A DNA stretch of 64,000 nt, taken from the IMG/VR virus record IMGVR_UViG_2718218305_000006; one strand, 5' to 3'. The number at the start of each line of letters is the position of its first letter. Position 1 is the stretch's first letter. The notes under the pieces are model-generated. The model was given only the letters and a program-made list of their open reading frames with translations. It was not told the origin of the DNA and ran no database searches. The translations under genes were made by a program, and so were the position numbers. Positions 29,355-35,044 of the stretch are shown in pieces. This stretch comes from a virus. Its lineage: Duplodnaviria > Heunggongvirae > Uroviricota > Caudoviricetes.

Positions 29355-29909
29355 ATGATATACCCGGAAATTACAGGCAAAAGCGGTGAGCATTTACGCC
29401 TGAAAACGCTGGAAAGTGTCTGGATCCAGGGGAAACTGCGTATGTGGGGGCGTTGGTCGTATATTGGCGACGGTAAGACGGGAAATATGTTCAACCAATT
29501 ACTGACCTCTAAAAAGCTGACAAAAACGGCAATTAACGAGGCGCTCCGGAGGATGAAAAAAGCGGGTCTGGACAAACCTGAACTTGAGGCTTTTTTGCGG
29601 GATATGATCAACGGCAATCAAAAAAGCTGGCTGGCACATTGTACCGATTCAGAGGCGTTAATAATCGATAGGGTTATTGGTGAAGTACTGGCAGGTTATC
29701 CCGGGCTGCTCAATGTTCTGAGTCAGCGTTATGTGGGGCGGGGGATGACTAAGCGCAAAATGGCTGAATTGCTGAATGATGCACATCCGGAATGGAGTTT
29801 AAGAACCTGTGAAAGACGCATTGAGCATTGGCTAAAGGTGGCAGAATTTATTTTGTACAAACCAATGGTTATGGCTTTTGGTATAGAGAAAAAAGTTATT
29901 GCTTTTTGA
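29355..29909 (+). CDS. Q: Late-gene antiterminator Q (Q-family)
   Basis: Position after rusA and before late terminator/lysis region; 184 aa from ATG 29355 (track GTG 29343); lambdoid Q-like. Confidence 0.65.
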   Translation: MIYPEITGKSGEHLRLKTLESVWIQGKLRMWGRWSYIGDGKTGNMFNQLLTSKKLTKTAINEALRRMKKAGLDKPELEAFLRDMINGNQKSWLAHCTDSEALIIDRVIGEVLAGYPGLLNVLSQRYVGRGMTKRKMAELLNDAHPEWSLRTCERRIEHWLKVAEFILYKPMVMAFGIEKKVIAF

Positions 29910-29986
29910 CGTAAAAACTGCTTCAATTCCGGTAAGCTTCGCAAAGCTGTACCGCGAGGCGAATAGCAGACATGGACATTTGAAAG

Positions 29987-30010
29987 AGCCCGCTTTTTGC
30001 GGGTTTTTTT
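29987..30010 (+). terminator. tR'-like intrinsic terminator downstream of Q (expected target of Q antitermination)
   Basis: AGCCCGC-ttttt-GCGGGTT hairpin followed by T7, 78 nt after Q stop. Confidence 0.6.
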
Positions 30011-30133
30011 ATGACTGAAAAACGGCACGGGGCGTTAAACGCGCTGGTGGTTGCTAATACCGGTCTTTCAACTTGCTGGCTTTTTCGACAAGAGTTATTG
30101 GTATGTCACGTTAACCGGAAAAGGGAAAAAGAC

Positions 30134-30331
30134 ATGCTAAAACAGCAGGATATGACAGAAACCGCCAGAGTGGTGTTTAATGAATTAAGCGTTACCGAAC
30201 CGGCGACAGTCGGGGAGATTGCGCAGAATACTTACCTTTCACGCGAACGCTGCCAGTTAATACTGACCCAGCTGGTTATGGCGGGTCTGGCAGACTATCA
30301 GTGCGGTTGTTACAGACGCATTCAGTCCTGA
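30134..30331 (+). CDS. Hypothetical small protein (65 aa)
   Basis: ATG at 30134; track ORF 30011 starts inside the terminator T-tract. Confidence 0.35.
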   Translation: MLKQQDMTETARVVFNELSVTEPATVGEIAQNTYLSRERCQLILTQLVMAGLADYQCGCYRRIQS

Positions 30332-30466
30332 AGGCTTTTTATTTGTGGTAAATGGGCGGCTGGTGGGGGGGGCGGCACCTGTCAGTCCTTTGCTTATGTG
30401 TTGATGATAATTTACCTTTTGGGGCTATAATTGAGCTAACCAATTGCTAATGAAAGTAAAATTATA

Positions 30467-32226: not shown

Positions 32227-32539
32227 TTTTTTTGTTTGCTGTTTATTAAAAACACTTCTGCATGGTGAATCCCCCTGTGCGGAGGGGCGATCAGCAACCA
32301 GGTATATGGGATAATCGCGGATTCAGGTGCTGATACTGAATTCACCGGGAGGCACCCGGCACCATGCTTTGCCACAAAAGTGTTGTTTCTGTTTTTCTCA
32401 AACTATCATCGTTATCCCTTTATTTCCGGCTGCGCATGGCGCGGCTTTTTTTTACGACCAGCCACTGGCAGATGGTCATCCTGTGATTTGATTCCGGTTC
32501 CGGCTTTTTAACTCTGTTCCTGTACACGGGAGAAATTCG

Positions 32540-34390
32540 ATGTCGATTAAACATTATGATGTTGTCAGGGCGGCGTCGCCGTCAGACCTTGCGGAAAAGC
32601 TGACACACAAACTGAAAGAGGGCTGGCAGCCGTTTGGTAGTCCGGTGGCCATAACCCCTTATACCCTGATGCAGGCGATTACAGCAGAAGGTGATGTGGT
32701 GGTCAGTGGTGCAACTGAGCCGGATTGGTACTACGTCATCGTACTGGCCGGGCAGTCCAATGCCATGGCTTACGGTGAAGGGCTTCCGCTGCCGGATTCA
32801 TACGATGCTCCGGATCCGCGCATTAAACAGCTGGCGCGCCGCAGTACAGTGACGCCGGGTGGGGCTGCCTGCAGATATAACGATATTATTCCGGCCGACC
32901 ACTGCCTGCATGATGTGCAGGATATGAGTACGCTGAATCATCCGAAGGCAGACCTGAGCAAAGGGCAGTACGGCTGTGTCGGCCAGGGGTTACATATTGC
33001 CAAAAAACTGCTCCCGTATATCCCGAATAACGCGGGGATCCTGCTGGTACCATGCTGTCGTGGTGGTTCGGCATTTACCCAGGGCGCGGAGGGGATATTC
33101 AGCGAGTCCACGGGGGCCAGCCAGGATTCGGCGCGCTGGGGTGTGGGTAAACCGTTATATCAGGACCTGATTGCGCGCACCAAAGCTGCATTACAGAAGA
33201 ACCCGAAAAATGTGTTGCTGGCGGTGTGCTGGATGCAGGGAGAGTTTGACATGAGCGCCGCCACCCACGCACAGCAACCTGCGCTGTTTACAGCCATGCT
33301 GACACAGTTTCGTGCTGACCTCTCCGTGTTTAACGCGCAGTGCCATGGTGGCAGTGCTGCAGATGTGCCGTGGATTTGTGGTGACACGACGTATTACTGG
33401 AAAAATACATACGCTACCCAGTACGACACCGTGTACGGCGGGTATAAAAACAGGGAGAGTGAGGGCGTTTATTTTGTGCCCTTCATGACAGACGGTAACG
33501 GCGTCAATACCGCCACTAACGCGCCGGCAGAAGATCCGGATATTCCGGCATCAGGATATTACGGTGCGGCATCGAGAACGAATGGAAACCAGGTATCATC
33601 AAACCGCCCGACACATTTCAGTTCATGGGCGCGCAGGAGCATTATTCCGGATCGTCTGGCAACCGCTATTCTGAACGCAGCCGGGCGCACCTCAGCCTTC
33701 ATCAGTGGTAAGGCACCGGAAATCAAACCCTCGCCCGGCGGCAACACGCCATCGGGTCCGTCTGCAGATACGTCCGTTCGCACAATCTCCCTGCTGCCGG
33801 CAGCCGGAGAGGCTGCTGCGCAGGGCTGGAGCATTAAGGATGGCGGAATTCAGTTGTCAGATGGTGTATTTAAGATCACCAGGCAGAGCAATAAAACCTG
33901 GTCCCTGACGCATCCGGTGGATGACGCAATTACCCTGCTGACACAGGGCGGCAGACTGACCTGTAAGTTCCGCCTGTCAGGCGCACTGACCAACAATCAG
34001 TTCGGGCTGGGGATTTATCTGTATACGGACGCTCCCGTTCCTGATGGTGTGGCGATGACGGGTACCGGTAATCCGTTCCTGATGTCGTACTTCACTCAGA
34101 CCACTGACGGCAGAGTGAATCTGATGCATCACAGGAAAGCCGGAAACACGAAGCTGGGGGAGTTCGGCGATTACGGTAACGACTGGCAGACGCTGGAGCT
34201 GGTGTTCACCGCCGGCAGTGCCACGGTTACTCCGAAACTGAATGGAGTGGCTGGCCCGGCATTCCAGGTTATAAAAGACAGTCTGACACTGGGACTGAAT
34301 GCGCTGACGCTGACGGATGTTACAAAAAATGCAGCGTATGGCGTTGAGATAGAAAGTCTGATGCTGGAGATAAATGCACCGGCAGCATAA
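32540..34390 (+). CDS. nanS: Prophage sialate 9-O-acetylesterase (NanS-p family: DUF1737 + SGNH/SASA esterase + C-terminal domain)
   Basis: 616 aa; N-terminal DUF1737-like region, esterase motif ..YYVIVLAGQSNAMAYGEG..; same position as nanS-p downstream of stx in Stx phages. Confidence 0.75.
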   Translation: MSIKHYDVVRAASPSDLAEKLTHKLKEGWQPFGSPVAITPYTLMQAITAEGDVVVSGATEPDWYYVIVLAGQSNAMAYGEGLPLPDSYDAPDPRIKQLARRSTVTPGGAACRYNDIIPADHCLHDVQDMSTLNHPKADLSKGQYGCVGQGLHIAKKLLPYIPNNAGILLVPCCRGGSAFTQGAEGIFSESTGASQDSARWGVGKPLYQDLIARTKAALQKNPKNVLLAVCWMQGEFDMSAATHAQQPALFTAMLTQFRADLSVFNAQCHGGSAADVPWICGDTTYYWKNTYATQYDTVYGGYKNRESEGVYFVPFMTDGNGVNTATNAPAEDPDIPASGYYGAASRTNGNQVSSNRPTHFSSWARRSIIPDRLATAILNAAGRTSAFISGKAPEIKPSPGGNTPSGPSADTSVRTISLLPAAGEAAAQGWSIKDGGIQLSDGVFKITRQSNKTWSLTHPVDDAITLLTQGGRLTCKFRLSGALTNNQFGLGIYLYTDAPVPDGVAMTGTGNPFLMSYFTQTTDGRVNLMHHRKAGNTKLGEFGDYGNDWQTLELVFTAGSATVTPKLNGVAGPAFQVIKDSLTLGLNALTLTDVTKNAAYGVEIESLMLEINAPAA

Positions 34391-34398
34391 TAAAAAAA

Positions 34399-34581
34399 GC
34401 CAGCGACTGACCTGAAAAAGAAGACGCTGGCTAAAAGGCCTTATATGTTTGTAGAGACTTATTTTTCACAGACAGCAATGATGCCTGTCAATATATTATC
34501 AATATGCGGATTGTTTCAGTTACAGATGCTTTATTAAGGAAAAAAACAGCCAGCACTGACTTTCGGTGGAGAGGTGCTGGC
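34399..34581 (+). repeat. Two paralogous stem-loop modules (34399-34431 and 34549-34581) in the nanS-S intergenic region
   Basis: GCCAGCG...CGCTGGC and GCCAGCAC...GTGCTGGC hairpins, each preceded by A7 and followed by (C/T)AAAAGG and a similar 60-80 bp tail. Confidence 0.4.
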
Positions 34582-34837
34582 TCAAAAGGATAGATGTACT
34601 TCACATGTTGCTTCTATATGGCAGTACATTTTCTGACAGACAGTGACGGATGTTGTCAAGATATTGTGTCATTTATAACCTGAATCGGGGGAGGCCGGAA
34701 TGTTATCTGGCATTTTTAGCAGAGCCTGAATGCCATAATCACGGCTCCCGGCGTTGGCCGTCAGTGGGTGACACTGGCGGCTTTTTTGTTTTCCTTTACT
34801 TTCATTTTCTGTCGGCGGTGACGGAGACATACATCAG

Positions 34838-35044
34838 ATGGAAAAAATCACAACGGGTGTGTCATACACCACGTCAGCGGTGGGGACGGGATACTGGTTA
34901 CTGCAGCTGCTGGACAAAGTCTCTCCGTCCCAGTGGGTGGCGATAGGCGTGCTGGGGAGTCTGCTGTTTGGGCTGCTGACATATCTGACGAACCTGTATT
35001 TCAAGATTAAAGAAGACCGGCGTAAGGCGGCGCGGGGAGAGTAA
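34838..35044 (+). CDS. S: Holin S (class II / pinholin-like)
   Basis: 68 aa [68 protein letters not shown]; matches recalled Stx-phage-type S. Confidence 0.85.

Follow-up and report, generated by a model that had tools for sequence, protein, structure and literature searches.

The segment between positions 29355 and 35044 of the window, by which we mean the whole 64,000-nucleotide stretch of virus record IMGVR_UViG_2718218305_000006 that was analysed, very probably represents the part of the defective lambdoid prophage Sp11 of Escherichia coli O157:H7 Sakai in which late-gene control elements and cargo are found, put together as a mosaic of four modules. Module (a) would consist of a gene for a Q21-like antiterminator, a late promoter belonging to it and the terminator tR'. 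Module (b), 29999-31501, which is common to prophage Sp4, comprises a small open reading frame (ORF) of winged helix-turn-helix (wHTH) type, the gene of the AraC-family regulator PsrB, the tRNA genes ileZ and argO with a dead argN between them, and a terminator. Module (c), 31502-32240, is the two-gene cargo tciA-tciB, lying in the interval where Shiga toxin (Stx) phages have stxAB, and module (d) a backbone common to Stx phages, made up of the STnc100/EcOnc04 small RNA (sRNA), the esterase gene nanS-p and an S21-type lysis cassette.

In sequence comparison, window positions 24000-44000 match E. coli O157:H7 Sakai 2177112-2197112 at 100% identity over 20 kb. Sakai has this match within a feature annotated as 'prophage Sp11, lambda-like phage', whose counterpart in EDL933 is CP-933O / OI-57; here Q bears the Sakai locus tag ECs_2193 and the holin gene, at the other end of the series, ECs_2188. 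The 5.5-kb region is present, with coverage of at least 80%, in 364 of 5,426 complete E. coli genomes, mostly O157:H7. Chance plays no part in the observation: the region is 100% identical to Sakai Sp11 and to about 360 further complete E. coli genomes. Its elements, all on the + strand, were confirmed by ORF listing, tRNA search (ARAGORN, Rfam), terminator scan and Pfam, and terminator folds were compared with shuffled sequences (200 shuffles for tR'). Their order is Q, tR', a 65-residue wHTH ORF, the AraC regulator, ileZ, a decayed argN, argO, a terminator, tciA-tciB, an STnc100 sRNA with its terminator, nanS-p, a terminator and an S21-type holin gene. A first-pass annotation had listed Q, tR', an AraC regulator, tRNAs, a TerB-like gene, NanS-p and S, without stx, and each of these was found on the + strand where it had been placed. 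The 'tRNA pair' of that annotation is correct as regards the two tRNAs, but the decayed argN between them makes it a degraded triplet. The 65-residue wHTH-like ORF, the STnc100-family sRNA and three further intrinsic terminators are additions to its list.

The evidence for a shared cargo slot comes from the interval around tciA-tciB and its two edges:

31474-31499, + strand: intrinsic terminator that closes the tRNA block and delimits the cargo slot on its left (-14.6 kcal/mol, z -3.5; kept in 933W and Sp4)
31631-32062, + strand: tciA (ECs_2190), TerB family, 143 amino acids (Pfam TerB 53.4 bits, cut-off 24.4; PDB TerB 2JXU, E=2.9e-7)
32059-32226, + strand: tciB (ECs_5731), DUF3927, 55 amino acids with two hydrophobic segments (Pfam DUF3927, E=4e-17)
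32231-32454, + strand: STnc100-family sRNA (RNA match 32231-32403) and its terminator (32428-32454) (Rfam RF02076, 104.7 bits against a threshold of 47, model positions 1-206)

Synteny comparison with Stx2 prophages, represented by 933W, showed homology on both flanks of the cargo with matching breakpoints. On the left, 933W matches 31205-31509 (ileZ-argN-argO-terminator) at 87% identity. Beyond this block the homology is lost; it returns at 32242, about 15 nt past the end of tciB, within the conserved element that in 933W lies downstream of stx2B. The stx2AB genes (positions 4463-5703 of the compared 933W stretch, L005) occupy exactly the tciAB interval. On the right, nanS-p is 71-82% and S, R and Rz are 93% identical to 933W, and nanS-p, S, R, ant and Rz follow each other in the same order. 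An Stx1a phage is even closer on this side, with 98% identity over 32527-35296, nanS-p to S included. Prophage Sp4 of Sakai is 92.6% identical over 29999-31501 (small ORF, psrA, three tRNAs, terminator), and its homology resumes at 32241; only some 46 bp separate the tRNA terminator of Sp4 from the conserved element, so that the slot is nearly empty. Aligned in this way, the cargo slot is 31502-32240, filled by tciAB here, by stx2AB in 933W and by stx1AB in Stx1 phages, and by almost nothing in Sp4. Because Sp4 combines psrA and the tRNAs with a near-empty slot, both slots, one for an AraC gene before the tRNAs and one for cargo after them, are real and modular. The comparisons with 933W and Sp4 thereby bear out the two moron slots of the first-pass annotation, which had assigned the AraC gene to the first and the TerB-like pair to the place of stxAB.

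Could the likeness to Stx phages be superficial, a generic lambdoid gene order shared without specific relatedness? The Q gene and its promoter region, which have no close match in any Stx phage, would fit this idea. However, it is refuted by the DNA homology that flanks the slot on either side and breaks off at matching points (87% over the tRNA block, 98% from nanS-p to S), and we give it practically no credence. The region illustrates how Stx phages and relatives without the toxin exchange cargo at a single fixed slot, bounded by terminators and controlled with the late genes. This slot may contain stx or, in a phage whose Q is related, the toxin genes eplBA; in other cases it has tciAB, or it is empty.

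The left end of the region is built differently. It holds the following elements:

29355-29909, + strand: Q, the late antiterminator gene of Sp11 (ECs_2193; Pfam DUF1133, E=3.7e-105; Phage_antitermQ, 33.1 bits, cut-off 26)
29899-29938, + strand: candidate late promoter pR' (-35 TTGCTT at 29899-29904, 17-nt spacer, -10 TTCAAT at 29922-29927)
29981-30011, + strand: intrinsic terminator tR', just after Q (-18.2 kcal/mol, z=-6.6, 0 of 200 shuffles as good)

ECs_2193 is annotated in Sakai as 'phage antiterminator', and its product matches the Q21 chains of PDB entries 6P18 and 6JNX at E of about 5e-4 (residues 80-181), weakly and over most of its length. We take it as a distant Q21 relative of the DUF1133 family with a predicted role in antitermination. 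The protein family is found in just 40 phage records (Klebsiella, Escherichia, Salmonella), none of them Stx-converting, and a megablast search against the phage collection returned no match covering 29355-29998. Homology to Sp4 and PPyecE_EH1910 begins at 29999, inside the tR' hairpin, with Q and pR' upstream unrelated to both, which marks a mosaic joint. The Stx-phage late architecture claimed in the first-pass annotation is therefore upheld from tR' onward only; as judged from these searches, the Q/pR' module (29355-29998) is not of Stx-phage type. The candidate pR' block is kept in phage vB_EcoS-673R7, whose Q is 79.5% identical. It is followed by a -10-like TAAGCT (29933-38), which could serve as a sigma-dependent pause element, and the leader from the candidate promoter to the end of tR' measures 75-78 nt. 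This leader (29936-30009) was also considered as a known sRNA and rejected: the only similarity in Rfam is isrK-like, at 19.8 bits against a threshold of 50 (E=0.49), and is probably driven by the terminator.

Between tR' and the tRNA genes lies the first cargo slot, with a small ORF and the regulator gene:

30134-30331, + strand: ECs_2192, wHTH-like ORF of 65 amino acids (annotated in Sakai, EC4115 and EDL933)
30404-30431, + strand: promoter-like site before psrB (ATGATA, 16 nt, TATAAT; 10 of 12 matches, top score in the scan)
30467-31180, + strand: psrB (ECs_2191, Z2104), AraC/XylS regulator of 237 amino acids (HTH_AraC 50 bits, HTH_18 37.8 bits; C-terminal double HTH)

Some sources label ECs_2192 as 'TrmB family', a similarity that Pfam scores below its cut-off (TrmB, E=0.0066). 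A 106-residue reading of this ORF at 30011 was dropped in favour of the 65-residue form, which is used by all three annotations. The promoter-like site before psrB falls within a stretch that shares 92.6% identity with Sp4 around psrA.

The AraC-family protein shares 175 of 195 residues (90%) with Sakai PsrA (ECs_1087), and the identical protein, WP_000301797.1, is encoded in OI-57 of the re-sequenced EDL933 genome. In the literature, psrA is ecs1087 (PMC13502914), and reviews, including PMC10877973, describe PsrB (z2104) as located in OI-57 and 90% identical to PsrA. As both the identity to PsrA and the identical OI-57 protein agree with this description, the AraC protein of Sp11 is PsrB. It aligns with YdeO from residue 1 (E=2e-30), which supports the 237-residue start and also fits the published activation of gadE and hdeA, for which PMC10877973 names PsrB as a direct activator. 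Where these reviews treat the phenotypes of psrB deletion and complementation, they make no reference to prophage induction. As published, PsrB, a YdeO-like activator, turns on gadE and hdeA and so increases acid resistance and, indirectly, reduces type III secretion, which ties carriage of the prophage to both traits in enterohaemorrhagic E. coli. Just after the lysis cassette, at 37897-38211, lies pchB, which encodes a PerC-family protein that activates the enterocyte effacement locus (LEE). Within 8 kb, Sp11 thus encodes both PchB, which activates the LEE, and PsrB, which represses it indirectly.

The tRNA block that separates the two slots begins with a promoter-like site:

31170-31198, + strand: pT, promoter-like site before the tRNA genes (TTGATT, 17 nt, TATTAT)
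31209-31284, + strand: ileZ5, tRNA-Ile2 with anticodon CAU (ARAGORN/Rfam; identical to 933W ileZ)
31291-31371 (about), + strand: decayed argN remnant (aligns to 933W argN; acceptor, D and T arms recognisable, anticodon arm replaced)
31385-31461, + strand: argO5, tRNA-Arg(UCU), reading AGA (ARAGORN/Rfam, Sakai annotation)

In 933W, pT is annotated at the position that this site occupies here, and in Sp5 a tRNA transcription start site has been mapped at the equivalent position (PMC7547250). The ARAGORN label 'tRNA-Met(CAT)' was replaced by ileZ, as the gene is so annotated in Sakai, EC4115 and EDL933 and is identical to ileZ of 933W; after lysidine modification, ileZ5 is predicted to read AUA. 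The argN stretch was rejected as a functional tRNA, since it is called by no tool (ARAGORN, Rfam) and does not fold better than shuffled sequences do (z -1.3). In 13 genes of the region, AUA and AGA occur 11.7 and 8.5 times per 1000 codons, respectively. The averages for E. coli K-12 are about 4-5 for AUA and about 2 for AGA, so that use of these codons in the region is presumably two to four times above the E. coli average. The ileZ and argO genes would supply tRNAs for these enriched codons.

Downstream of the cargo, the region continues with the backbone shared with Stx phages. In addition to the STnc100 element, it contains:

32540-34390, + strand: nanS-p (ECs_2189), predicted sialate 9-O-acetylesterase (Pfam DUF1737, SASA and DUF6645)
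34756-34792, + strand: strong intrinsic terminator just before S (11-bp stem, -21.6 kcal/mol; annotated at the same position in phage 434)
34838-35044, + strand: S, class II (S21-type) holin, first lysis gene (Pfam Phage_holin_2_1, E=7.3e-33, profile positions 1-63 of 64)

The STnc100 element forms the right edge of the cargo slot, and its core is kept downstream of stx1B, stx2B and tciB alike (five phages). An opposite-strand, convergent terminator segment found in 933W, the Stx1 phage and PPyecE is missing from Sp11 and 434. According to the supplement of Tree et al. (2014), Sp11 has an Hfq-bound sRNA, EcOnc04, in the intergenic region between ECs2189 and ECs2190, with a length of about 222 nt. 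The STnc100 element here, which measures 224 nt if counted from 32231 through its terminator (to 32454), corresponds to EcOnc04. The same supplement places a second Sp11 sRNA, EcOnc24, at Sakai 2166694-2166753, equivalent to window positions ~54359-54418 (- strand). HnrS, a multicopy prophage sRNA, was considered as well and set aside, as it is reported for Sp9, Sp10 and Sp12 and not for Sp11.

Among PDB entries, NanS-p matches 3PT5, which is NanS, at E=9e-122, and 6YP6, a C-terminal domain of NanS-p, at E=2.5e-29. Like S, nanS-p has 13 or more paralogous places per genome. It has a GQSN motif at residue 71 and a histidine, His359, in NRPTHF; the GQSN serine and this conserved histidine are what we take to be the catalytic residues of NanS. 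The three-part architecture described for NanS-p proteins (DUF1737, SASA and a lectin-like C-terminal domain; PMC10462455) is matched here, and the same paper notes nanS-p in non-Stx prophages as well. As published for paralogues, the enzyme would strip 9-O-acetyl groups from sialic acids and thus feed growth on mucin-derived sugars. After S follow DUF1327/ydfR, endolysin R, ant and Rz, the whole lysis cassette extending over 34838-37433 on the same strand; the N-terminus of the endolysin is hydrophobic (GLSAAVLALIGAGASA). The corresponding part of EC4115 (L003 25695-26601, equivalent to the window from ~35050) has a truncated ydfR joined to a capsid-gene fragment, with endolysin, Rz, pchB and terminase removed.

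The cargo itself is the least understood part of the region. TciA contains two DGxxxxxE motifs, at residues 39 and 117, and is annotated in Sakai as 'TciA/TerB-like'. The GTG start codon of tciB overlaps the TGA stop codon of tciA by 4 nt (GTGA). The two genes are also adjacent in P1, JL22, vB_EcoM-673R5, FSL SP-076, As2, TR2 and Evi, lytic podophages included. Because the pair recurs in P1-like, lambdoid and lytic podophages, a function in the phage cycle is indicated rather than tellurite resistance. The most likely model, in our view, has TciA as a soluble, metal-binding TerB-domain protein docked to TciB, its tiny two-helix membrane partner, and the two would work at the inner membrane while the phage develops or when the envelope is stressed. 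That TciA-TciB is a conserved two-gene phage module with an inner-membrane role in phage development is a tentative proposal, which we hold at rather less than even confidence. The module might keep the envelope or the proton-motive force stable until lysis, or it might shut out colicins or superinfecting phages.

The membership of TciA in the TerB family, and database names such as 'tellurite resistance protein', would also suit a host tellurite-resistance determinant, that is, a miniature ter operon. But TerB is the only ter domain present, no homologues of terC, terD, terE or terZ adjoin tciA, and the tellurite resistance of O157:H7 maps to the terZABCDEF island elsewhere in the genome. Occurrence of the same gene pair in strictly lytic podophages and jumbo phages favours a role in the infection cycle. 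Tellurite resistance is therefore unlikely as the selected function of TciAB, and a miniature ter operon strikes us as quite improbable.

How would the cargo be expressed? Judging from lambdoid and Stx-phage biology, transcription from pR' would stop at tR' unless Q modifies RNA polymerase. The modified polymerase would then pass four terminators (29981, 31474, 32428 and 34756) and express everything as far as the lysis genes and past them, tciAB included. With four terminators on the way from Q to S, Q-modified polymerase should be required for the lysis genes and for tciAB. In Sp5, stx2 is located at the moron site downstream of the Q-antiterminated PR', and Sp11 is named among the prophages with this layout (Tree et al., 2014; PMC4104026). 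Expression of the cargo from the late promoter on induction, which the first-pass annotation had stated as fact, is for Sp11 a prediction by extrapolation. Independently of Q, psrB, the tRNAs and the sRNA, each with a promoter-like site of its own, would act in the uninduced cell; binding of EcOnc04 to Hfq is published.

Several points weigh against a Q-controlled late operon with functional cargo. The candidate pR' is not securely placed, since its -35 and -10 elements match the consensus at three and four of six positions, respectively, and a generic promoter scan did not call it. The supplement of Tree et al. (2014) contains no Hfq-bound sRNA at the coordinates of the pR'-tR' leader. Antitermination by the DUF1133-type Q is a prediction. 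On the side of the cargo, PADLOC defence profiles gave no meaningful match for TciA or TciB (nor for Q, ECs_2192, PsrB or NanS-p), and we found no functional experiment on the tciAB pair in the literature. Deletion of psrB alone had little effect on secretion, according to the reviews. Finally, Sp11 has a disrupted repressor and integrase and did not circularise, replicate or become packaged (PMC2669165), and Q-driven expression of the operon may therefore be rare or absent in Sakai. A full-text search by locus tag and the supplement of the sulfamethoxazole-trimethoprim (SMX-TM) study yielded no transcript data for ECs2188-2193 under induction.

The defects of Sp11 also speak for a domesticated remnant, in which the late operon is no longer a Q-controlled unit and Q, pR' and the lysis genes are decaying passengers, a proposal to which we give somewhat less than an even chance. 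Its second part, that the host retains the cargo (psrB, the tRNAs, EcOnc04, nanS-p and perhaps tciAB) and that local promoters alone drive its expression, we consider conceivable to the same degree. Without a working repressor and integrase, Sp11 is not excised, replicated or packaged; there are promoter-like sites before psrB and the tRNAs; argN has already decayed; and EC4115 keeps the same 5.5 kb at 100% identity but has ydfR fused to a capsid-gene fragment and has lost endolysin, Rz and terminase. However, Sp11 still has, in Sakai, an intact Q, S, R and Rz and a full set of intact morphogenesis genes, and about half of the Sp11 genes changed expression under an SOS-inducing drug. Moreover, neither the scan nor reading of the sequence recognised a promoter-like site between the terminator at 31474 and the start of tciA, making read-through the simplest route to expression of tciAB. 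We prefer the reading as a Q-controlled late operon, with the qualification that it may be the host, and not the phage, for which the cargo is kept.

Descriptions of the region exist already, through the Sakai annotation, the work on PsrB, NanS-p and EcOnc04, and a moron-site comparison that includes Sp11. Apart from the role of TciAB, everything in the Sp11 late region has thus been published, and it does not add new biology for O157:H7.

Further features were noted elsewhere in the window. The nin-like region upstream of Q contains a hok/sok-type toxin-antitoxin locus at 26741-27065 (Rfam sok, 113.5 bits, with a mokC/hokC-like ORF). At 27185-27529, between hok and a DUF968 gene, lies the gene for a YgiW/YdeI-family stress-tolerance protein (ECs_2197). 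The DicF sRNA is found at 19480-19531 on the - strand (Rfam, 75 bits), and dicB is annotated in the same early region of the EC4115 and EDL933 prophage. By Sakai coordinates, window positions 1-17023 fall outside the annotated Sp11 feature and probably belong to a neighbouring prophage, which we take to be Sp12. In EC4115 and EDL933, the equivalent prophage is preceded by tail-fibre genes, nleG7 and a nest of IS66 and IS256 elements.

Among the closest known systems are the Stx phages (933W/Sp5, Sp15, Stx1a), with which Sp11 shares the order terminator, pT, ileZ-argN-argO, terminator, cargo, STnc100, nanS-p, S, R, ant and Rz. It differs from them by carrying tciAB instead of stxAB, by the insertion, after tR' and ahead of the tRNAs, of an AraC gene plus a small ORF, by a dead argN, by a Q/pR' module of the Q21-like DUF1133 family, by the lack of the convergent anti-sRNA terminator segment, and by being defective. 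Sp4 matches Sp11 closely in the block through the terminator (92.6%), in nanS-p (95.5%) and in the regulator (PsrA and PsrB, 90% identical), but has a different Q, a CAAX-protease gene, an intact argN1 and a cargo slot of about 46 bp.

In PPyecE_EH1910, JLK-2012, 434 and Evi, as in Sp11, tciA-tciB lies directly before STnc100 and nanS-p, at 90-97% identity, with tciB only in 434. The upstream cargo of PPyecE differs, comprising a DNA methylase, a 'plasmid stabilization protein' and a transcriptional regulator, and so does that of 434, with membrane proteins and a Q82-like Q. P1, with tciA-tciB(-tciC), and plasmid or chromosomal TerB are like Sp11 in the TerB fold family and, for P1, in the tciA-tciB pair; however, TciA is only about 40% identical to the P1 type, the genomic context is another one, and Sp11 has no other ter genes. 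Phages of the Rac-SA53 type have a DUF1133 Q that is 67% identical, followed by the pertussis-like toxin genes eplBA before the holin. Unlike Sp11, they have no tRNAs, no nanS-p and different lysis genes. In Rac-SA53 itself (L009 5492-6723), eplBA lies between Q and the holins, and LT-IIa genes follow the endolysin. A toxin between Q and holin in this phage suggests that toxin cargo downstream of Q is a wider habit.

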